IMG/VR virus record: IMGVR_UViG_3300028392_002123
DNA from: a virus
Lineage: Duplodnaviria; Caudoviricetes
Reading direction: 5' to 3' (one strand)
Length of the DNA stretch: 64,000 nt
Shown: positions 6,879 through 35,132 of the stretch, one piece after another
Layout: each line of letters begins with the position of its first letter
How positions within the stretch are numbered: the first letter of the stretch is position 1
Program-made: the position numbers and the translations under genes
The notes under the pieces: generated by a model
Seen by the model: the letters and a program-made list of their open reading frames with translations, nothing else
What the model was told of the DNA's origin: nothing
Database searches by the model: none

Positions 6879-7222
6879 ATCGCTCCTTTTCTTAATCTGT
6901 GTATAAATTTAGCTTCTAAAATTAGTCTTGCCGCTTCGGGATCGCGCATCATATCATCCCAGTCATCTAATGTACTAACCATCTTGGCAAATTCCGGTTC
7001 AGCAATATCCATGGTAAGCATAGTTACATGACTTCGTTCCATGTATCTATCAAAATCTATATAACTAGTCTCGTCCCATATGTCCCGTGAATGTGTGGGT
7101 AAATGCCGCACTCTTTCTTCTATTCTTGTTTTAATATTACTAATTTGATATCGATCCGCGACTCTGCGAGCTTGATCCATATTGATATTTGACTGTGTTA
7201 CCATGTTTTTTGTTATTGCCAT
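6875..7222 (-). CDS. Hypothetical protein
   Basis: ORF track, operon context. Confidence 0.6.
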   Translation of the reverse strand: MAITKNMVTQSNINMDQARRVADRYQISNIKTRIEERVRHLPTHSRDIWDETSYIDFDRYMERSHVTMLTMDIAEPEFAKMVSTLDDWDDMMRDPEAARLILEAKFIHRLRKGAI

Positions 7223-7950
7223 AACAGTTTTTTTATTCCATGTAAATTTTTGTAAGTCACAATCTCTTCAGGCATGGACATTACACTATCTTTTATTATA
7301 CGCTCTTTTTCTTTAGTGTCAATATATTCTTTATAAGGAATTACTATTGTTTTAATCAAAAATACACTGGTCAATCCAAGTTCGATGGTATCAAAAGTTT
7401 GGTACTCATATCTAAAATATAAATCATCGATGCTGTTTGGAGTAGGAGTTAGATAACTGGGATGGTTGCTTAATTTTGGATTGGCTGTAATCGTCCAAAC
7501 TGTGCGGCACCAAGGGCCGGCGCCGCTGGCCATAATATCTGCAATACGATTGCTTGCGGCACGTAACTCATCGCCCCGGGCCACAGGACGATGTATTTCT
7601 TCCAGAGTCATCATTAACTTGCTGGCAGGATCCCATCCACTGGGAAATGCTACAAATAAACTTTGTAGTCTGCCTTTGTGCATGATAACAACATCTTCTT
7701 CTAAATGGAATCCTAGTTCTAAAATATTGTTTGTTTGAAATCCCAGTCGATTTGCTGTTTTGCTTACTATGTTATCTGCATAAGCTTCATCACTGCTGGC
7801 CCAAAGTCCATGGGGCTGTTTAATAGATTTAAACTCGTCGTACTTGGCATCGATGTATCGATGATCGGGTATTTTGCTGTACAACGGCCCTGTTAGTTTT
7901 CTAAAATTTGGGCGAGTTGTGTACGGTTTATCTTCAACTACGAATTCCAT
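7213..7950 (-). CDS. DUF3445 / heme-dependent oxidative N-demethylase alpha-subunit-like protein
   Basis: EEDVVIM, VAFPSGWDP..K....L.EIH.PV, R..WTI, R.EYQT motifs. Confidence 0.7.
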   Translation of the reverse strand: MEFVVEDKPYTTRPNFRKLTGPLYSKIPDHRYIDAKYDEFKSIKQPHGLWASSDEAYADNIVSKTANRLGFQTNNILELGFHLEEDVVIMHKGRLQSLFVAFPSGWDPASKLMMTLEEIHRPVARGDELRAASNRIADIMASGAGPWCRTVWTITANPKLSNHPSYLTPTPNSIDDLYFRYEYQTFDTIELGLTSVFLIKTIVIPYKEYIDTKEKERIIKDSVMSMPEEIVTYKNLHGIKKLLWQ

Positions 7951-12147: not shown

Positions 12148-13158
12148 TTAACAGTCTAATCTAACAACCTTAGAGATACCGCCTCTACTAGGAGTCCATC
12201 CTGTGGGCCATGACACAGTAACATCACCGTCGTGATCTGGGTCTCTAACCGGGGGATCTGCATTTTTTCCAGGGCTTTGATTTCCGCCTACAAATGTATA
12301 TTTTCCACCAGTGGCAGTATAACAGAAATTAACGTGTCCCGATCCCCATAATACTAAGTCGCCGGGTTTCATTTCGCTGACAGCCACAGTTTTATAATTA
12401 GAGTCAACCGAACCGCTGCCTAATTTATTTGCTAGATTACTAGCGCCAGCATCTCGTACCCATTTCATTCCGCTTTGTTTCATTGCAAAACAAGCAAAGC
12501 CTGCACACCAAGGAACTTGATCATTTGTAAAACCTAAACCAATATTTTTCCACATATTAACAATATTAGGATTACTAGTTTTGCCACCTTGTCCGGTTTC
12601 ACGCCATGCACCTGTTTTTGCTTCTTGTAAACACTGGCCTAGGAATCCTAATACATTTGGTTTACCTGCATCACATTTAGTTTCTGGTTGATCTTCTATT
12701 GGTGGAGCTTCAGATACTCCTGGATTGGAAGGAGCTGTACCTGCTTGTTCGTTTTGTTGTCGAGTAGGCGCTGGACTAGTTCTTATATAAGGCTGATCAT
12801 CTCTTGCTAATGGTGTATCGGGTCTAGAGAATAAATTGCTAGGCACAACAACTATAGTAGATTGTATTGTAGATGCTATAGCCCCGGGCTCATTAATGTA
12901 AACATTAGGACTGCCTATTGCTCTAGGATGACCGCAGGTATCTTCATCGCCTGTTTTATTAACAGGTATAAAATTAATATATACCGTAGTGCTACCGTTG
13001 GCTGTTAATGGACTACTATGCGGCGGTAGTCCATGTCCTTCTACAGGACTGCCATCGACACTGACTAATAAATTATTAGCATACACAGTTTGCTGAACAA
13101 CTTCGATGATCGGAGCTTCATCGGAGTTGGGATCGGTCAATCTGTGTACTTGTGGCAT
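12148..13158 (-). CDS. PAAR-like spike domain fused to a TIGR02594/CHAP-like peptidoglycan hydrolase domain
   Basis: N-terminus HRLTD...H...H...GSTTVYIN...GDEDTCGH...GSPNVY; C-terminus VPWCAGF...PGDLVLW..GHVNF...GGNQS. Confidence 0.75.
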   Translation of the reverse strand: MPQVHRLTDPNSDEAPIIEVVQQTVYANNLLVSVDGSPVEGHGLPPHSSPLTANGSTTVYINFIPVNKTGDEDTCGHPRAIGSPNVYINEPGAIASTIQSTIVVVPSNLFSRPDTPLARDDQPYIRTSPAPTRQQNEQAGTAPSNPGVSEAPPIEDQPETKCDAGKPNVLGFLGQCLQEAKTGAWRETGQGGKTSNPNIVNMWKNIGLGFTNDQVPWCAGFACFAMKQSGMKWVRDAGASNLANKLGSGSVDSNYKTVAVSEMKPGDLVLWGSGHVNFCYTATGGKYTFVGGNQSPGKNADPPVRDPDHDGDVTVSWPTGWTPSRGGISKVVRLDC

Positions 13159-25635: not shown

Positions 25636-27081
25636 TCAACTCTTTTTTAACAAATCTTTAATTCTATTATTAGAGTCCATTGTTCGTATACCAACACTGG
25701 GCTCTTGTTTTTTATCTAAACTCCAACCTTCTTTGGGCTGTGCTTTTTCCCATGTTCCTGATTTTGGCGGACTACTATCTTGTTGTGTTGCCTTACGCTG
25801 TAAATTATTATATAGAACATTAGCAGTAGTAGGTGCTTCTGCGCTATTTTCATCTAAGTCTGTGATACGCAGACTTGTTGTATTAAACTCCAATTCAATC
25901 TTAGTACCAACTGCACTTGAGCTACGTGTTTTCATAAACTGCAACTGTACTCGTTGACGTTCGCGCATTGTAATACTATTAAAAATACCGATGACGTTGT
26001 CAGCTGTTTGAATCTTAGACAGGCCGCCACTAATATGGCTATGATCAAACTCTACACTTTCAACGGCTCCGCGATTCAACTGTGACGCAGTACAGAACAA
26101 GTATCTATCCTGTACTGCCATTGCTCGCAATTCTTCCGAAACATACTTGTCTTTAATAAAAGTATTCTCTGCAGATATCTTTACAGATACCGGTGACATT
26201 AAATCTAAGTAGTCTACAACAACAAAGTCAATTTTTCTATTGAGCTGAATCTGAAATTCTTTAATCCAAGATTTTAAATCGTTGACAGTAATGCCTGCTG
26301 TAAGTTGCACAATCTGTAACTTACCTGCTTTCTTACCTTTCATTTTAATATTAAGGTCCACATCATCGATGTTCTTATAAATGTCTTTGGTAGCAATGCC
26401 CATAAGCATGGCATCCATACGCATACTACACAGACCTTCACTGAGTTCAAGACTAAAGTAAACTCCGTTAAGTCCTTGCAGACTCCAATTCAGTGCCAAG
26501 TTCTGCAAGAACAAACTCTTACCTGCACCAGAACCGCCAGCAAAGATGTTCAGTTCACCTCTGTTAAATCCACCATACAACTTTTCGTCAATGGTCTTCC
26601 AGCCTGTGCTAGTACCACCATTTTGATTCTTGAGTAACATTAGTCGACCCATGGGGTCTGCGTAATAGTCTGTGCCAAAGCTCTTTGGCAAGCCAATGTT
26701 ACTGGCATCTTTAATTAGTTTTTCAACTTCACCGTAACGCTGTTTGTCTAATAAGTCTGCACTTTTAAGAATAGCTTTTTCTAATGCTTTGTGTCTGGCA
26801 AATTGTTCAAACTCTGTTAAAAACCAATCCTTGTGTGCTTGTGCCTCACTTGGAATTAATTTAAGATCTGTGTCCGTGATTGCCTTAACTTGGTCCACGC
26901 TAGGACAATCGCTGTACTTGCCAGCATATTCTTTGATAAATTTTGCTGTGTCTTGTAGACTACGAGAAAAATGTGTGTCGTCTAAAACGTTTTGACAACG
27001 GCTCAGCAGTTCTTTGTCGCTGATTAAAAATTCTAAAAATAGCTTTTGTAGATCTGCACTATATTCTTTTACTTCTTCACT
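25636..27081 (-). CDS. Replicative DNA helicase (DnaB/T4 gp41-like)
   Basis: Walker A GGSGAGKS, SLELSE, VVVDYLDL, TASQLNR, MKTR; probable start MSEEVK. Confidence 0.92.
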   Translation of the reverse strand, partial: SEEVKEYSADLQKLFLEFLISDKELLSRCQNVLDDTHFSRSLQDTAKFIKEYAGKYSDCPSVDQVKAITDTDLKLIPSEAQAHKDWFLTEFEQFARHKALEKAILKSADLLDKQRYGEVEKLIKDASNIGLPKSFGTDYYADPMGRLMLLKNQNGGTSTGWKTIDEKLYGGFNRGELNIFAGGSGAGKSLFLQNLALNWSLQGLNGVYFSLELSEGLCSMRMDAMLMGIATKDIYKNIDDVDLNIKMKGKKAGKLQIVQLTAGITVNDLKSWIKEFQIQLNRKIDFVVVDYLDLMSPVSVKISAENTFIKDKYVSEELRAMAVQDRYLFCTASQLNRGAVESVEFDHSHISGGLSKIQTADNVIGIFNSITMRERQRVQLQFMKTRSSSAVGTKIELEFNTTSLRITDLDENSAEAPTTANVLYNNLQRKATQQDSSPPKSGTWEKAQPKEGWSLDKKQEPSVGIRTMDSNNRIKDLLKKS

Positions 27082-27286
27082 CATTATCGTTACCCCAACG
27101 CAATGCCGCAATCATTGCGTGTTCCTTTTCTTTAAATTTAAAAATCATGTATTCATGACTTAGCTCGGTTATATAGTTGTCACCGGGTGCGCCATAATTT
27201 TCCAACATCCATATACAGACATTGTTCCACCAAGCAGATGTGTCTTGTCCTAAATCCCAATTTTTTCTCACGCAATAATTATACAC
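27077..27286 (-). CDS. Small hypothetical protein
   Basis: Coupled between primase and helicase. Confidence 0.6.
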   Translation of the reverse strand: MYNYCVRKNWDLGQDTSAWWNNVCIWMLENYGAPGDNYITELSHEYMIFKFKEKEHAMIAALRWGNDNE

Positions 27287-28256
27287 CTAGTTTCCTTGCT
27301 AATAGTCTAATTTTTGTTGGGCTGTGTTCGGCCGCTTGTAGTATACTATGTACAGTAAATGTTCTGCCATATTTTTTAACAGCATCTCCCACATCTTTGC
27401 AATCTTCCCAGTCTGGGAAACTTACATTCCAACCATAGTCTGCGGCCTGTTCTGCTAGTAAGCGGCCTGCTCGATCTCTATCTGGGATCACTATAGGTTC
27501 TATATTTAAGTCCTCTATCAACTGAATTTGTTTGTCGTTGATATTATTACTACCAATTGCAAGTCCGCTGGTCAACAATGCATCAAACTCTCCTTCACAG
27601 ACAATAACATACTGACGTTGTTCTCGTTGTGCATCCAACCCATAGACATAGTTTACAGGACTTTTCTTTTTATACTTGCCGTATTTTTTCTCTTCTTCTG
27701 CGGTGCCAATGAATCTGCCTGTGTAACCTACAAGTTTATTTTCATAGGTAAAAGGCAAAATAATCCGACGATGCATGGACATGATCTCACTGTCTGTTTC
27801 AAACCATGTTGCAAGTTCTAGCAGTTGTCTGCTTTCTAGATAAGAAATTTTAATTGGATCTTCAAGTACTTTAATATCAAACTCAAAGTCGTAGTTTGGC
27901 CAGTTCGGAACATACGCAGGTTCTGGTTCCCGTCGTTTAATTGTTTCAACATCGGCTTGACTAAGTATTTCTAAATTTAGACGCTGAACTTCTGCTTCAT
28001 CAAAGCCAAAAGTTTTAAGAAGCTTTCTCATCTTAAAACTTAATGTCCAGCCTGGACTCCATCCAGTTTTATAATGACAATTAAAACATTGATAGCCTAC
28101 ACTACCATCAGGACTGTATATCAGACCGCCACGATGTTTTGTGTCTGGTCTACTCTGTCCGTTGACAACGCACATTGGACAATTGAACGATACCCACCCA
28201 TTAGGTGCCGTTCTTCCGTTTACTCTACTTCTTAATAATGTTTGTAAGGCCATCAT
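27279..28256 (-). CDS. DNA primase (T4 gp61-like)
   Basis: Zn finger CPMC...CFNCH; GYTGR; TOPRIM CEGEFDA and PDRD. Confidence 0.9.
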   Translation of the reverse strand: MMALQTLLRSRVNGRTAPNGWVSFNCPMCVVNGQSRPDTKHRGGLIYSPDGSVGYQCFNCHYKTGWSPGWTLSFKMRKLLKTFGFDEAEVQRLNLEILSQADVETIKRREPEPAYVPNWPNYDFEFDIKVLEDPIKISYLESRQLLELATWFETDSEIMSMHRRIILPFTYENKLVGYTGRFIGTAEEEKKYGKYKKKSPVNYVYGLDAQREQRQYVIVCEGEFDALLTSGLAIGSNNINDKQIQLIEDLNIEPIVIPDRDRAGRLLAEQAADYGWNVSFPDWEDCKDVGDAVKKYGRTFTVHSILQAAEHSPTKIRLLARKLGV

Positions 28257-29109: not shown

Positions 29110-29478
29110 ATGGCTACATTTGACGAAATAATAGAAAAATTCCCGTTTTTAAGTTTATGCAAACAGGGCGATGATGAATTAATCGGGATCATCCAAAACT
29201 ATACTAATTCTGTGGTAAGTATCTATGTCTATAACTACATACGAACCGTTGAGGAAAAACAAGAATTCCTAGAGCTAGGAGAAGAATGGTGGTGGGGTAG
29301 TAATCGTATATTACCCATCAATCTAGTTGTCGGTCCAAAATTTAAAAAGTACAGTTCATATCTAAGAACGTATAATGTCAAAGATTTCGAAATTATCCAA
29401 GGTACGCCCGTTAGTCTCCAAAATATTATCACAAAACGCATCAAACGTAGGCAAATACAACTAGTTCAAAAATTTTAA
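29110..29478 (+). CDS. Conserved hypothetical protein
   Basis: TAAATA 6 nt before ATG; WWW.SNR.LPI motif. Confidence 0.75.
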   Translation: MATFDEIIEKFPFLSLCKQGDDELIGIIQNYTNSVVSIYVYNYIRTVEEKQEFLELGEEWWWGSNRILPINLVVGPKFKKYSSYLRTYNVKDFEIIQGTPVSLQNIITKRIKRRQIQLVQKF

Positions 29479-29487
29479 GCTAAGTAC

Positions 29488-30201
29488 GTGATGACAGAAC
29501 TAATTTATACCCTTGTTGTAACACATATCACTATTGTTTCAGTTACACTATTTTTGCATCGTAGTCAAGCACACAAAGCAGTAACATTCCATCCCATTTT
29601 ATCACATTTTTTCAGAGCCTGGCTATGGTTGACCACAGGTATGATCACTAAACAATGGGTTTCAATACATCGCAAACATCATAGGTTCAGTGATGTTGAT
29701 GGTGATCCACATAGTCCCATTGTTCATGGCATTAGAAATATATTCTTTCGAGGAGTATATTATTACTATCTAGAAGCTAAAAATCCGTCTACAGTTTTGC
29801 AATACGGTAAAGGTACACCCAGCGACTGGATTGAAAAAAAATTATACACTCCATATAACCATTATGGAATTTTAATCATGCTGGCTATCAATGTACTGTT
29901 ATTTGGTTGGTGGGGACTGCTCATATGGATAACACAGATGCTGTGGATTCCATTCTGGGCGGCCAGCGTTATTAATGGACTGGGACATTGGTTTGGTTAT
30001 CGCAATGGTGAAACCAGAGACTCTAGTAAAAATATTGTTCCTATTGCTCTGTGGATAGGCGGCGAAGAACTGCACAACAATCATCATCTAGCACCAGCTA
30101 GTGCTAAATTTAGTCGTCGTTGGTTTGAGCTTGATATAGGTTGGATCTATATAAAATTATTTAATTTTTTAAGACTTGCCACTATCAATACCGTAAACTA
30201 A
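29488..30201 (+). CDS. Membrane fatty acid desaturase (delta-9/DesA-like)
   Basis: Three His boxes HRSQAH, HRKHH, HNNHH; TM segments; WFELDIGW. Confidence 0.9.
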   Translation: MMTELIYTLVVTHITIVSVTLFLHRSQAHKAVTFHPILSHFFRAWLWLTTGMITKQWVSIHRKHHRFSDVDGDPHSPIVHGIRNIFFRGVYYYYLEAKNPSTVLQYGKGTPSDWIEKKLYTPYNHYGILIMLAINVLLFGWWGLLIWITQMLWIPFWAASVINGLGHWFGYRNGETRDSSKNIVPIALWIGGEELHNNHHLAPASAKFSRRWFELDIGWIYIKLFNFLRLATINTVN

Positions 30202-30750
30202 AAGATTCATCTGTAACATAATAGCCGTGGCATAGCCGATGGCATGGCTACGCTTAAAACTATAAGAATCATCTGTCTTAACCCATACTTCTTTTTCTAT
30301 CTCCGGCCAAGTTTTATAAATTAAGTGTCTCTTACCTGGACGTATAACTGCCAAGACAGCGGCCAGTTGTTCTACACTACGTGGCTTTAACTTTTTAACA
30401 ATGTCTGCATGATTGTGTATGTGGAATAACTCTTTGATAACATCTTCGTGTTCAAGTAATTCCCAAACTGGTTCTTTTTCCAGTAACAGATCTATTTGAG
30501 CATTGTCGGTGAACTGACTATAGATGCCCACGTTCAACAAGTCTATTTTAAACCAGCCTTGTTCTTCGGCAGTCTTATAGTCTAACGTGGCTAAGCCAGT
30601 AAAAGGATTTACAGGAACATTATGAAAATAAACTCCTGTGTTATGTTTACGCTGTGTTGCTCCATCTTTTTGCATGGCCGGAACACAAGAAAACAATTTT
30701 AAAACTTGTTCTCTGTCTGCGAAATCAATGTCGACGTCTGTGGTTACCAC
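30169..30750 (-). CDS. dnaE: Miniature DNA polymerase III alpha (DnaE)-like catalytic-core protein
   Basis: TDVDIDF, RKHNTGVYF, GWFKIDLL, AVIRPG, YSFKRSHA motifs in only 193 aa. Confidence 0.8.
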   Translation of the reverse strand: MVTTDVDIDFADREQVLKLFSCVPAMQKDGATQRKHNTGVYFHNVPVNPFTGLATLDYKTAEEQGWFKIDLLNVGIYSQFTDNAQIDLLLEKEPVWELLEHEDVIKELFHIHNHADIVKKLKPRSVEQLAAVLAVIRPGKRHLIYKTWPEIEKEVWVKTDDSYSFKRSHAIGYATAIMLQMNLLVYGIDSGKS

Positions 30751-31537
30751 GATCTTCCTTTTCTAATATGTTATTATACATTAGTTCTTCTACTTTTGCC
30801 AAACGAATTTTCTTATTTTTTGAACCTAGTATAACCAATGTGTATACCTGATCTTTATTTTCCACTGTCATGGCCACACACCAGCCAGCGGCATTGGTCA
30901 GTCCTGTCTTACTTGCAACAACACTACGAAACTCACTGAGTATTGATTTATTGGTATTAACCAATGTAACTGTTTTAATCTTGTTTTTATATTTGACATC
31001 AAATGATTGTTCCTGTGTGGTTGTTAATTTGGCAATCATATTATATTTTGTTGCTTCTTTCATCATTATTGCAACTTCTTCAGCTGTGCTTGTATTAAAA
31101 ACACTAAGACCTGAAGGATCCATGAATCTCGTATTAACCATGCCAAGATCTTTGGCTTTTTGATTCATTGCTCGTAGAAAACCTTCTCGACCTCCGGGAT
31201 AATCAGATGCTATTGTTTCAGCAGATGCATTGTCACTGCGAATAAGCATAGCAGACAATACATCCAATCTCGTGTTCTCTTTTGAAGGTAATTGACTACG
31301 CAGTTTGTCGTACATGGATAATTTCTTATCCATGTCCAAACTATAGTCTAAGGCAACCATGGCAGTCATTAACTTGCTGATACTGGCAATAGATCTAACT
31401 TCTTTGGAGTTGTCGCCTATCATTACTAGATTAGCTGTTTGATTATATAAAAAAATTGATGGATGTCCCTGTGGAGCTGACTTGGCAAACACCGTGTTAA
31501 GAAACAAAAAAGATACTAGTAAAATTATGTTTTTCAT
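30725..31537 (-). CDS. Peptidase S11 D-Ala-D-Ala endo/carboxypeptidase (PBP7/PbpG-like), exported
   Basis: Signal peptide; SxxK (IASISK), SxN (SDN), KTG (KTGLTNAAG). Confidence 0.9.
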   Translation of the reverse strand: MKNIILLVSFLFLNTVFAKSAPQGHPSIFLYNQTANLVMIGDNSKEVRSIASISKLMTAMVALDYSLDMDKKLSMYDKLRSQLPSKENTRLDVLSAMLIRSDNASAETIASDYPGGREGFLRAMNQKAKDLGMVNTRFMDPSGLSVFNTSTAEEVAIMMKEATKYNMIAKLTTTQEQSFDVKYKNKIKTVTLVNTNKSILSEFRSVVASKTGLTNAAGWCVAMTVENKDQVYTLVILGSKNKKIRLAKVEELMYNNILEKEDRGNHRRRH

Positions 31538-31734: not shown

Positions 31735-31960
31735 AGGCTTTTCTTAAAGCCTGTCCGGCTTTATTTTCTATATTTACTACTTTTTGTTCTAGCTTTGCAA
31801 TTTTTGATACTAATCTACTATACGCTTCGGCTGTGGGTACTACTGCTCGTTGGCCGTTTACTACTACTTCCATTAGATCGACACTCAGCGTTTTCAATGA
31901 GTTTTCTTGAATATTTTTGTTGAGTAATGCAGGTACTTGACGTTCAGAGTATTGTTTCAT
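31727..31960 (-). CDS. Small coiled-coil hypothetical protein
   Basis: ORF track, coupled. Confidence 0.6.
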   Translation of the reverse strand: MKQYSERQVPALLNKNIQENSLKTLSVDLMEVVVNGQRAVVPTAEAYSRLVSKIAKLEQKVVNIENKAGQALRKAYE

Positions 31961-32637
31961 TTTATTTCCGCTTGATTAAAAACATCTTGTATCCAAGATG
32001 CGTCTTGTGCATGACGTTTGACACGCACTCTCCAAGAAGTAGGTTCTATATAATCAACAAGTTCTTTGACTAATGTCTCATCTAACCTGTCAATCAATCT
32101 ACTTCCTTGATCTGTGGCAAAGGTACACCATGGACTTATACGACCCATCTTAATGTCTCGTACAGCCACTAAGGTCGGTACCTCTTGAAAATAATTTTGC
32201 CAATTACAGTTACAACTTTCGGCCCAATCTTTCATATGTAAAATACTACGTTCGGTTGCTCTATCAACTGATTCGTGTTTCAACATATTTTTAATATATT
32301 CTTCGTAGACAAAATCCTTGCACCAGTCCGACATCTTAACACTATTCATGACAATAAACTTTAAGAAATCTTCTGGTGGCTTAATGTTTAGATCTATAAT
32401 ACGTTTTGCCAGTTTCATGAAACCACCAAAATATCTAGTGGCCGCGAAATCATCATATGGTTTGTCTTTTTTAACATTGGCCATGCTCAAGCGTCTATAC
32501 TCTAACCATAGTTGGTATGCTATACGATTTTGTTTATCGTCTTTGGCCGAATGTCTACGCTTCTGTTCACACATGTGAGACATCAGTGTGGATTCTTTGG
32601 CAAAGGCTTTGTTACAATATTTGCAATTATAGCTCAT
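31957..32637 (-). CDS. C2H2 zinc-finger-containing conserved protein in the replication operon
   Basis: YNCKYCNKAF..ESTLMSHMC. Confidence 0.7.
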   Translation of the reverse strand: MSYNCKYCNKAFAKESTLMSHMCEQKRRHSAKDDKQNRIAYQLWLEYRRLSMANVKKDKPYDDFAATRYFGGFMKLAKRIIDLNIKPPEDFLKFIVMNSVKMSDWCKDFVYEEYIKNMLKHESVDRATERSILHMKDWAESCNCNWQNYFQEVPTLVAVRDIKMGRISPWCTFATDQGSRLIDRLDETLVKELVDYIEPTSWRVRVKRHAQDASWIQDVFNQAEIK

Positions 32638-33112
32638 TGGCAGCGGTGATAATGTCTTTGTCTTTAATATGAAACTGTTCTAGCATATTGCGAGCAGATT
32701 CTTTGTTCATGTTTGATATCCAGATATCTAGTTCTTGATCATCCAGATGAGGATATAAATCTTTTAACCAAGTTTTAAAAGCATTTTGTTTTTTCTTCTT
32801 ACCTTTGCCGGGTGCAACATAGGGATGCTTCATACTACGTCCAACACCTACAATGGTCATTAACTTCCAAATCATTTCAGGATCTTTTATATCGCTGTAA
32901 TTAACATTGACTAATTCATTGGTCATTATTAAGTAATGTTCGATTATTTCTTGACTGGGGCTTTCTGCACTACTTAGATATCGCTGAACTAACCATGGAC
33001 TAAATCCTTTACGTTCATCAGCAGATAGATTTTCGTAAAAATCTTTTTGTCGTGTGTCTATAGCGGGTAATACACGCTTAAACATATCAAGCATTGGTTG
33101 TTTGGTTGCCAT
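32627..33112 (-). CDS. Probable clamp-loader small subunit (T4 gp62-like)
   Basis: FSPWLVQRYLS...N.....P....KL...GKKK pattern and size; replication context. Confidence 0.5.
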   Translation of the reverse strand: MATKQPMLDMFKRVLPAIDTRQKDFYENLSADERKGFSPWLVQRYLSSAESPSQEIIEHYLIMTNELVNVNYSDIKDPEMIWKLMTIVGVGRSMKHPYVAPGKGKKKKQNAFKTWLKDLYPHLDDQELDIWISNMNKESARNMLEQFHIKDKDIITAANEL

Positions 33113-33123
33113 GTAATATTATA

Positions 33124-33624
33124 TTAATATATTTTAGAAATGTCTAGGACTTCTGGAAGTTTGTTTGTTTCTTTGACAAAATAAGCACACACTGGCTTTT
33201 CTCCAGCAGTCAGTGGTACTGCTAAGATATGTCCATATTTAAGTTTTGGTGTAAACCATCTAACATCTTGGAACACATTAATAATTTCAATAGGCCTAAA
33301 TTCAATTCTAAAACTGCTAATAGGATTAAACACAAAGGCACTAAATCCTCTATCATTGATATGCATAATGGGCAACACTTCAGGATCGCCATGGTCCGAC
33401 TCTCCTATTACCACGTGCCAATCTAAAGGAACTTGAATAACATTTTCTCCGATTTTCAATACTGCGGCAGGTGCATGAAAAGTTTCCATAAAAATCAAAG
33501 GCACAAAATGATAGTCAACGTTTTTAGGATCGCTCCAATCTAATACCCCGTACCGCAAGTCCTCGATTTCATCCGGCAGTTGATTCAATTCAAATGCTGT
33601 GTTATCTACTGTTAATATATTCAT
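33124..33624 (-). CDS. Conserved hypothetical protein with a HINT-like beta pattern
   Basis: See findings; coupled to uvsW. Confidence 0.6.
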   Translation of the reverse strand: MNILTVDNTAFELNQLPDEIEDLRYGVLDWSDPKNVDYHFVPLIFMETFHAPAAVLKIGENVIQVPLDWHVVIGESDHGDPEVLPIMHINDRGFSAFVFNPISSFRIEFRPIEIINVFQDVRWFTPKLKYGHILAVPLTAGEKPVCAYFVKETNKLPEVLDISKIY

Positions 33625-33626
33625 TA

Positions 33627-35081
33627 TTAATATTTTACTTTCTCGATACTAAAAGGATACTTGGCATCCTGATAATATTTTTTACGCACCGTCAGATGCT
33701 TTTTACTAAACTTTGCACTGGATGTTAAGTCCCAGATGTTTACATGGTCCTTATCTTGAGCTCGTCTAATACCCCGTCCAATGCTTTGGATAACTCTAGT
33801 AAAGCTTTTTCCGGGCTCCAGAAGAACCAAATTAAAAATACGAGGAATATTAATACCCACAGCGGCCACACCATAAGTCGCCACAATAATCTTTTTATCC
33901 GATACGCTAATCTCATCGTAATGATCTTTCCTGTCTGTTGATTTCATTGATCCGCTGACAAATACACTTTTGTCGCCTAAACGTTCGCAGATCATTTCCC
34001 CGCATTTAACTCTATCAACTAATACCAATGTGTTTCCACTTTCACTTAATCGTTCGATAAAGTTACTGATGAAATCAACACGACGAGTATTGGTTGTTAA
34101 GTATGTAAGTTCTTCCTGGTATGTATTATATTCTACAGTATCTTGTAGTTGTATAACATTAACGTGACAATCTGCCAGCACACCGATGTCTTGAAGATCA
34201 CTGGCGGCTATTTTATTTACCACATTTCCTATGCAAGCCACTAACCCAATTTGCTCAAAATCTTCTTTAGGTATAGTTCCTGTTAGTCCCCAACGGATAG
34301 GCACATTGGCAAATGCACCACTGAGCAATGCTTTTAATACATCTGCTTTGGCTTGGTGAACTTCGTCTACAATAACTGCTATCACACCATCTGCAAATTC
34401 TTCTAGACTCATGGGACTTTCTCCGTCTTTGAATCTCTTTTGTAAACTGTTAAGACTTTGCCATGTACAAATTGTATGAGTCTTATTAAGATCTTTCCTA
34501 TCGCCAAAGTATACGCCTACATCTAAATCCAAATTCTTATAGTCCGATTCTGTTTGTCTAACCAAATCTTTATTAGGCACAATAACAATACTACGGCCAT
34601 ATGGTTCTACGCATTTACTCATTGTAGCAGTCATCAACGTTTTACCTGCGCCTGTGGCAATCTCTTGCACACATTGTAAGTTAGTCAAGAACTGATTGAT
34701 AGCATTTACTTGATAATCTCTTAGCTCAATGGGTTCGCCTTCTTTTGGATGCCCTTTGGGCCAAACATGCTGACTATGTGTAGTTTCGCACACTTCCGGA
34801 AAAGCAAAGTTATGCATGGGTCGTTGATCATCAATGTCAATTTGATAACCATCATCTACCAAATGAGGTAAAATTCTATCTAGCAGATTAAAATAAGAAG
34901 CGCCAGCCAAACTAAAATAACTTACACAACCATCCCATCGACCTAATTTATATGCCGGAACATGATAGGCATAAGGCATAAAATATTTTAGTTCTTTTTC
35001 TATCTTGCGTCTTGTGCTAACTTCCAAGCCACTTACTTTAATATTGACTTCGTCTTTAATATGTATTGTACATGATGTCAT
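33627..35081 (-). CDS. uvsW: SF2 DNA helicase UvsW
   Basis: ATGAGKT, DEVH, GLTGT, QSIGRGIR; start moved to MTSC, 6 nt after TATAAT (35093-35088). Confidence 0.92.
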   Translation of the reverse strand: MTSCTIHIKDEVNIKVSGLEVSTRRKIEKELKYFMPYAYHVPAYKLGRWDGCVSYFSLAGASYFNLLDRILPHLVDDGYQIDIDDQRPMHNFAFPEVCETTHSQHVWPKGHPKEGEPIELRDYQVNAINQFLTNLQCVQEIATGAGKTLMTATMSKCVEPYGRSIVIVPNKDLVRQTESDYKNLDLDVGVYFGDRKDLNKTHTICTWQSLNSLQKRFKDGESPMSLEEFADGVIAVIVDEVHQAKADVLKALLSGAFANVPIRWGLTGTIPKEDFEQIGLVACIGNVVNKIAASDLQDIGVLADCHVNVIQLQDTVEYNTYQEELTYLTTNTRRVDFISNFIERLSESGNTLVLVDRVKCGEMICERLGDKSVFVSGSMKSTDRKDHYDEISVSDKKIIVATYGVAAVGINIPRIFNLVLLEPGKSFTRVIQSIGRGIRRAQDKDHVNIWDLTSSAKFSKKHLTVRKKYYQDAKYPFSIEKVKY

Positions 35082-35105
35082 AGAACAATTATAGCATATA
35101 CAGCC

Positions 35106-35132
35106 ACAAAAAAGCAACCTTAAAGGTTGCTT
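35106..35132 (-). terminator. Intrinsic terminator closing the upstream cassette; overlaps the uvsW -35 region
   Basis: AAGCAACCT-TTA-AGGTTGCTT followed by TTTT. Confidence 0.75.

Follow-up and report, generated by a model that had tools for sequence, protein, structure and literature searches.

A probable C-terminal subunit of a split, minimal DNA polymerase III alpha in an uncultured T4-related jumbo phage

A 64,000-nucleotide stretch of DNA from an uncultured phage (Duplodnaviria; Caudoviricetes; IMG/VR record IMGVR_UViG_3300028392_002123), hereafter the window, carries a small gene whose 193-residue product is almost certainly the C-terminal unit (C-unit) of a split, minimal alpha subunit of DNA polymerase III (Pol III). 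With a probability that we put at roughly 0.85, this protein is the C-terminal subunit of a two-subunit, minimal nucleotidyltransferase of the C family, typical of the T4-related jumbo phages of group 2.2. The enzyme may serve these phages as an accessory DNA polymerase. The evidence comes from its homology and fold, its conserved catalytic residues and the selection acting on them, its co-occurrence with a separate N-terminal unit (N-unit) in related phages, and the existence of natural fusions of both halves.

A split C-family polymerase has already been published, and the window gene is another member of that family. Using computational methods, Iyer et al. (Viruses 13:63, 2021; PMC7824862) described a “minimal split Pol III alpha” in group 2.2 jumbo phages. 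In the passages of their paper devoted to it, the enzyme consists of two proteins from distant genes, an N-terminal part binding the nucleoside triphosphate and a C-terminal one binding Mg2+ and the template. The authors suggest that the enzyme cooperates either in making one of the strands or in repair, and that it could be regarded as a model of the ancestral enzyme. What is new here is the residue map onto Escherichia coli DnaE, the selection statistics, the structure models, the size of the family in metagenomes and the rare 375-residue fusions, of which the same passages of the 2021 description make no mention.

The relationship of the C-unit with Pol III alpha can be recognized from its sequence. 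The library profile PHROG 11778 (“DNA polymerase”) matches residues 3-185 with an E-value of 1.4e-65, and Pfam returns for the C-unit alone only a sub-threshold match to the finger domain. A phmmer search against the PDB aligned the protein to three colinear segments of Mycobacterium tuberculosis DnaE1 (residues 415-424, 567-664 and 774-787), and a profile of 91 diverse homologues retrieved nine PDB sequences, all of them Pol III alpha, with E-values of 5.7e-6 to 1.9e-4. The alignment of these 91 homologues was also used to build an AlphaFold2 model of the C-unit, which reached a mean predicted local distance difference test score (pLDDT) of 94.5 and a predicted template modelling score (pTM) of 0.87. 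The ten best Foldseek matches of this model are all Pol III alpha. With VIA-align, the ten best chains are either DnaE or PolC, with Z-scores of 6.1-9.4, and the next fold follows at Z 3.5. The best superpositions (Z 8.7-9.4 over 177-190 residues) correspond to 3f2c (Z 9.4, root mean square deviation of 3.8 Å, 188 residues), 3e0d (Z 9.2), 5lew (Z 9.0) and E. coli 4jom (Z 8.7, chain residues 399-781). As modelled, the C-unit has a fold that matches only C-family polymerases.

A pairwise alignment with E. coli DnaE, where the string DFDVDF begins at residue 401, allowed us to map the following elements:

30724-30738, minus strand: DxDxD strand, D5-V-D7-I-D9-F, equivalent to E. coli D401-F-D403-V-D405-F (alignment).
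30634-30648, minus strand: K35-H-N-T-G, equivalent to E. coli K510-H-A-G-G (pairwise alignment).
30541-30549, minus strand: K68-I-D70 with the third catalytic aspartate, equivalent to E. coli K553-F-D555 (alignment and profile).
30334-30342, minus strand: finger motif R137-P-G, equivalent to E. coli RPG 639-641 (alignment and profile).
30244-30255, minus strand: finger helix K166-R-S-H169, equivalent to E. coli N757-K-S-H760 (alignment and profile).

The five motifs on which the original prediction of a minimal C-family polymerase was built are all there, and in the order it gave: TDVDIDF at residues 4-10, KHNTG at 35-39, KIDLL at 68-72, IRPG at 136-139 and YSFKRSHA at 163-170. Two of its details have to be corrected. 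The catalytic pair, first placed at D7 and D9, is shifted by one aspartate, as the alignment equates D5 and D7 with E. coli D401 and D403, and the distance between the equivalents of D403 and D555 is of 63 residues instead of 61. A register with D5 placed on D403 was rejected, since D401 would then have no aspartate as a partner.

From the DxDxD strand through the NKSH finger helix, the C-unit is colinear with DnaE, yet it has lost most of the cellular enzyme. It has no PHP domain, and its palm lacks everything up to DnaE residue 398, the GRGS loop at residues 361-364 included. The thumb (about residues 417-497) is replaced by only some six residues just ahead of KHNTG, and the fingers between residues 642 and 737 (about 96 residues) are reduced to two residues before the KRSH helix. 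The C-terminus corresponds approximately to DnaE residue 781-785, and nothing aligns beyond about 785, so the C-unit is also devoid of the clamp-binding, HhH, OB and tau-binding parts. The proposed absence of the PHP, clamp-binding and OB domains was therefore right, as the alignment leaves no residues for them. The full C-family architecture, with PHP, thumb, complete fingers, clamp-binding and OB domains in one chain, is not found in the C-unit, nor are the GS loop and the DxD strand on one polypeptide, as the protein begins four residues ahead of its first aspartate. The idea of a minimal polymerase core thus holds for the likeness to DnaE, seen in both profile and fold, but not for its completeness: without the part of the palm that carries the phosphate-binding GRGS loop, a loss that the prediction had overlooked, the 193-residue protein is not a complete catalytic core.

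What is left in the C-unit is strongly conserved. Among 91 representative homologues with 30-85% identity, D5, D7, K68, D70 and P138 are invariant, whereas D9 is kept in 89, H36, G39 and R137 each in 90, and H169 in 89. Residue 166 is a lysine in 84 of the representatives and an arginine in six more (K/R in 90/91). D5, D7, D9 and D70 are equally invariant in 79 coding sequences from IMG/VR, for which the ratios of non-synonymous to synonymous substitutions (dN/dS, Nei-Gojobori method) range from 0.01 to 0.17 in pairs with a dS of 0.1-0.4, with a median of 0.23 across all pairs with a dS below 1.5. This pattern of residues is that of an active site under purifying selection, not of decay. Both the selection on the aspartates across homologues (D5, D7 and D70 are invariant in the two sets) and the early argument against simple decay are borne out by these data, the latter by the low ratios of the close pairs.

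The family is also a large one. C-unit homologues of 185-199 residues form about 2398 clusters at 90% identity and 406 clusters at 50% identity, and in IMG/VR, C-units occur on more than 595 stretches. These numbers bear on the trivial explanation of the gene as a fragment of a full-length dnaE, either by frameshift, decay or an assembly artefact, or as one half of a split-intein protein. Apart from its short length, nothing points in this direction. Instead of pieces of dnaE, the flanking reading frames hold an S11 peptidase and, convergently, a desaturase. Over 20.5 kb around the C-unit gene there is also 100% identity with Ga0114964_10000001, a contig of 340,358 bp from a metagenome of the Joint Genome Institute (JGI) and an independent assembly. 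Together with the thousands of homologues of the same length, these two observations exclude the frameshifted or assembly fragment that the original prediction had offered as its own refutation. As the homologues are moreover under strong purifying selection, and no sequence of the size of an intein occurs where N-units end and C-units begin, we consider any form of this explanation extremely improbable.

The gene and its ribosome-binding site are located as follows:

30169-30750, minus strand: coding sequence, very probable C-terminal unit of a split minimal Pol III alpha, 193 residues (open reading frame, PHROG 11778, DnaE/PolC fold and homologues).
30756-30760, minus strand: Shine-Dalgarno sequence AAGGA, within the 3′ end of the upstream peptidase gene (from the 25-nt upstream sequence).

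This open reading frame (ORF) is uninterrupted and comprises 193 codons from a GTG start. The 25 nt that lie 5′ of the GTG end in ...GAAAAGGAAGATC, with the AAGGA motif 5 nt ahead of the start codon. The beginning of the gene overlaps the final 26 nt of the gene of an S11 D-Ala-D-Ala carboxypeptidase (30725-31537, minus strand), and its 3′ end overlaps by 33 nt the convergent gene of a fatty-acid desaturase (29488-30201, plus strand). JGI gene calls on identical DNA (P0121 and P0122) start at Met26 and give a product of 168 residues in which the aspartate strand is lost. We regard the 193-residue form as the better call because residues 3-25 are conserved in the homologues and the ribosome-binding site fits the GTG, and the ATG at Met26 is disfavoured as a start on the same grounds. 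Truncation of C-units at an internal methionine occurs elsewhere in the databases: in addition to the 168-residue JGI products (affecting window positions 30676-30750), the RefSeq coding sequence of phage Atu_ph07 (NC_042013) begins 66 nt past the start of its match to the C-unit (L094:1501-1567). Such gene calls drop the DxDxD strand, and the catalytic residues are thereby hidden from annotation.

The palm part that the C-unit lacks is encoded by a separate gene in its cultured relatives. We searched the whole records of related phages with PF07733 at the curated cut-off, and one match above it was found in each of the seven complete phages that carry a C-unit, namely PA5oct, Phosso, Atu_ph07, XacN1, RsoM2USA, Vibrio phage 2.275.O and Turkey3, with an additional weak match below the cut-off in Vibrio phage 2.275.O. 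Atu_ph07, a named member of group 2.2 in the corresponding passages of PMC7824862, has homologues of both the C-unit (46% identity) and the N-unit. In all seven relatives the N-unit is a separate ORF of 169-182 residues on the same strand as the C-unit. The shortest distance between them is about 4 kb (RsoM2USA), others are of 15-44 kb, and the longest exceeds 180 kb. All N-units end in ...GxGRGS(S/C)xxS...(E)F(L/F)x, which corresponds to ...GPGRGSGAGS...FERFLN of E. coli, about 9 residues before D401, and the N-unit of PA5oct aligns to DnaE residues 323-392 with an E-value of 3e-8. C-units in turn begin 4-6 residues before the DxD, and neither of the two units carries extra sequence of the size of an intein. 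The break point, inside a palm of the Pol-beta type, is identical in all lineages examined.

Among the deposited phage genomes, 96 records carry a C-unit and 120 an N-unit. All but one of the 96 C-unit records (95/96) exceed 280 kb, the exception being one of 94 kb. The C-unit/N-unit tallies per host genus are almost the same for the two halves: 34/34 for Escherichia, 11/11 for Pseudomonas, 11/10 for Klebsiella, 8/8 for Erwinia, 4/4 for Xanthomonas and 4/4 for Yersinia. Among the extra N-unit records are phages of Bacillus, Listeria, Clostridium and others with 27-34% identity, several of which are annotated as DnaE or Pol III alpha. In the deposited annotations, the N-unit appears mostly as “DNA polymerase III alpha” and the C-unit mostly as “hypothetical protein”. 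N-unit homologues amount to about 5542 clusters, all of them with PF07733.

Natural fusions of both halves provide a further argument. An exhaustive representative search returned one such protein, of 375 residues, in which residues 190-372 match the C-unit query. Encoded by a single ORF on a 2.4-kb ENA scaffold (L106:1066-2193), it begins with an N-unit, which an 11-residue linker (...KEFIK-DNKEGIYNIA-DFDID...) connects to a C-unit. Two further fusions, of 376 residues and from other datasets, are 78-81% identical to it, so that three such proteins (P0294, P0395 and P0396) come from independent datasets. Fusions are rare beside the thousands of split forms. By a classic argument, the existence of single chains with both halves suggests a joint action of the separate N-unit and C-unit as a single enzyme. 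The presence of the GRGS loop on a separate N-unit, the fusions and the co-occurrence in 7/7 genomes led us to reject a stand-alone complete core. The same facts speak against a 193-residue protein acting by itself, be it a self-sufficient mini-polymerase or a factor without catalysis that attaches to parts of the host or phage replisome, next to a functionally unrelated N-unit. Although the two genes lie far apart and the model of the C-unit folds confidently by itself, as this explanation would expect, the GS phosphate-binding loop is absent from the C-unit and sits in the N-unit, the halves share an identical break point in all seven genomes, and invariant catalytic aspartates would be hard to reconcile with a non-catalytic role. 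We judge it very unlikely.

A model of the fused protein was obtained with AlphaFold2 from a small alignment in correct register (A5), three other alignments (A3, A4 and A6) having been discarded because they misplaced N-units onto C-units. The model, with a pLDDT of 84.3 and a pTM of 0.81, superposes on M. tuberculosis DnaE1 with a Z-score of 21.8 (3.3 Å over 308 residues), on the ternary complex of Thermus aquaticus with Z 20.6, and on PolC with Z 18. In this predicted structure, the two halves together rebuild the palm and the inner fingers of DnaE. As the core has a Pol-beta-type fold, with no thumb, incomplete fingers and none of the domains that bind duplex DNA, both halves could instead form a template-independent nucleotidyltransferase for the tailing of DNA or RNA ends, or for the production of a nucleotide signal or decoy in the conflict between phage and host. 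Cid1, CutA and poly(A) polymerases do align to residues 118-263 of the fused model, across the junction, but with a Z-score of only about 3, against 21.8 for DnaE. Moreover, the finger elements that have been retained (RPG and the KRSH helix) are nearly invariant and common to DnaE and PolC, and the gene belongs to a replisome module and not to an island of defence or anti-defence genes. A template-independent enzyme is thus an improbable alternative, less so than a C-unit working alone.

We propose that the C-unit would supply the metal-binding aspartate strand (D5 and D7), K68 and D70, and a pared-down finger module (RPG and KRSH), and that a partner of about 170 residues, encoded elsewhere in a genome of about 340 kb, would contribute the preceding palm helices and the triphosphate-binding GRGS loop. 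The two chains would associate non-covalently to form one active site of the Pol-beta type, a mode of association that is the most likely one because no intein is present. From the sequence data we consider the formation of such a heterodimer likely, and templated DNA synthesis by it somewhat more probable than not. The enzyme could act as an accessory, non-proofreading DNA polymerase of low processivity in a T4-type replisome, with primer extension or hand-off, lagging-strand synthesis and gap filling as candidate roles. An accessory role in the replisome is probable because the relatives combine a T4-type replisome and a clamp loader with a family B polymerase (PF00136, in 5/5 relatives tested), and because the C-unit gene sits between the gene of a replisome helicase and those of the primase and DnaB.

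The first option of the original prediction, one subunit of a split C-family polymerase, finds support in the co-occurrence with N-units (7/7), the fusions, the selection and the lack of signs of a fragment, but the word “replicase” in it is not, as the relatives also have a family B polymerase. The search it recommended, for other pieces of DnaE and for a family B polymerase, found both in relatives (7/7 and 5/5, respectively) and neither in the window scans. A bolder version of the two-subunit reading, where the two-piece mini Pol III of about 360 residues would be a self-sufficient, template-dependent polymerase beside the family B enzyme, perhaps the first to extend primase products, is for now a speculative option that we would not favour.

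Several facts weigh against an accessory polymerase made of two subunits. No N-unit was found in the 64-kb window, either by tblastn with the N-units of PA5oct and Phosso or by a scan for the motif G.G[RK]GS, and no family B polymerase among the larger ORFs scanned there. The physical association of the chains is deduced from co-occurrence and fusions only. With the thumb, about 96 finger residues and every C-terminal domain for duplex binding gone, the enzyme may not be able to hold a primer-template at all. Finally, beyond Iyer et al., our literature search turned up no article on the split enzyme, nor any biochemical, genetic or expression report on any member. Other searches were also negative. 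Five large IMG/VR fragments (22-60% complete) gave no N-unit, with weak PF07733 matches in two of them, both adjoining the C-unit locus, a result that carries no weight given the incompleteness of these sequences. None of the best 120 of 5542 N-unit homologues comes from the 340,358-bp contig. A DnaQ-like exonuclease, a possible proofreading partner, was not found among the further ORFs of the window that were scanned. A 2026 review on jumbo phages does not mention polymerase III, DnaE, split or family B enzymes, and the main text of the PA5oct transcriptome paper contains nothing specific on the N-unit and C-unit genes.

The source of the window is an uncultured, freshwater, T4-related jumbo myophage. 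The window aligns at one end of contig Ga0114964_10000001 and carries genes for a tail sheath, a large terminase, a gp32-like single-stranded DNA-binding protein, UvsX, a weak match to UvsY, and both the large and small subunits of a ribonucleotide reductase, as well as DnaB, a DnaG-type primase and a DEAD/ResIII helicase. The genes around the C-unit are the following:

33627-35117, minus strand: DEAD/ResIII helicase, head of the conserved replication module (library match).
32627-33112, minus strand: phrog_11758, conserved upstream gene (library match).
31957-32637, minus strand: phrog_11058, conserved upstream gene with an N-terminal C2H2 zinc finger (CxxC...HxxxC; library match and synteny).
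29110-29478, plus strand: phrog_11637, convergent gene for 122 residues with EKFPFL, WWW and KRIKRRQ motifs (conserved neighbour).
27279-28256, minus strand: DnaG-type primase, downstream in the C-unit module (library match; order as in PA5oct and Phosso).
25636-27111, minus strand: DnaB-like replicative helicase (library match).

PA5oct and Phosso share the order helicase, phrog_11279, phrog_11758, phrog_11058, C-unit, convergent gene of 120 codons, virion protein, primase and DnaB. In PA5oct, phrog_11058 lies directly before the C-unit; Phosso has one small extra gene between them and one more gene between the virion protein and the primase. With respect to these two phages, the window phage shows a peptidase gene and two small ORFs inserted upstream of the C-unit, and the desaturase gene downstream of it. 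The inserted S11 peptidase has an N-terminal hydrophobic leader. The trio phrog_11279, phrog_11758 and phrog_11058 (window 31957-33624, minus strand) is found between helicase and C-unit in the three phages. In Turkey3, the gene located two places upstream of the C-unit was deposited as a “sliding-clamp-loader small subunit”, and may correspond to phrog_11758.

In every relative examined (PA5oct, Phosso, Atu_ph07, Vibrio phage 2.275.O and Turkey3), a homologue of phrog_11637 and the C-unit gene face each other tail-to-tail, and on the ENA scaffold the fused gene has the same neighbour. This small protein could be an accessory factor, or its position a mere case of conserved gene order. On the side of the partner, PA5oct and Phosso have a small gene directly after the N-unit gene, whose products share the stretch VAV...N(A/V)(K/R)GD.L..GG, which suggests a second conserved neighbour.

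Some other genes of the window deserve a brief comment. By eye, two ORFs at the contig end (171-1920, minus strand) encode proteins similar to a glycosyltransferase (334 residues) and to an LpxH-type metallophosphoesterase (258 residues; DVHLG...GNHD), probably auxiliary genes of the cell envelope. The gene at 7213-7950 (minus strand) resembles the alpha subunit of the haem-dependent oxidative N-demethylase (PF11927, E-value of 4e-24), and the one at 12148-13158 (minus strand), with weak, sub-threshold PAAR and CHAP matches, may encode a component of the tail spike or of lysis. As regards PA5oct, its DNA resists several restriction enzymes and its genome encodes genes of the 7-deazaguanine pathway (PMC12191111), so this carrier of the split mini Pol III probably has modified G.

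Among known systems, cellular DnaE1 and PolC (4jom, 3e0d, 5lew and 3f2c) share with the phage protein the same order of motifs (DxDxD, K-x-D, KH(A/N)xG, RPG and (N/K)KSH) and superpose with Z-scores of about 9 on the C-unit alone and of 18-22 on the fused form. However, cellular DnaE has about 1160 residues and an uncut palm, whereas the phage unit has 193 residues (375 with its partner), and its palm is interrupted after the GS loop and ahead of the DxD strand. Cyanobacteria also make a C-family polymerase from two distant genes, protein trans-splicing within the fingers being what unites the halves of their split-intein DnaE. The phage enzyme comes from two genes as well, but its halves do not have an intein extension and the break falls inside the palm. 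A C-family catalytic domain is likewise found in jumbo phages of group 3.2 and others of the Bacillus phage G type (PMC7824862). Those enzymes are full-length and host-like, PHP domain included, and our N-unit query finds them at only 27-34% identity. The split Pol III alpha of Iyer et al. belongs to T4-related jumbo myophages with a family B polymerase, and we see no difference in kind between it and the window gene.

C-family polymerases replicate bacterial chromosomes. To our knowledge, they have no homologue among the archaeal and eukaryotic replicases, and their origin is therefore an open question. Thousands of sequence clusters show the split mini Pol III to be a common enzyme of giant phages in the environment, and its two-chain form of about 360 residues, which keeps every catalytic residue, shows how little of a 1160-residue enzyme the active site needs. 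The 375-residue fusion offers a single-chain form that should ease biochemical and structural work. Should the two pieces prove to be a self-sufficient polymerase, they would rank as the smallest working member of the C family, and the ancestral core of the bacterial replicase would have a living model in them.

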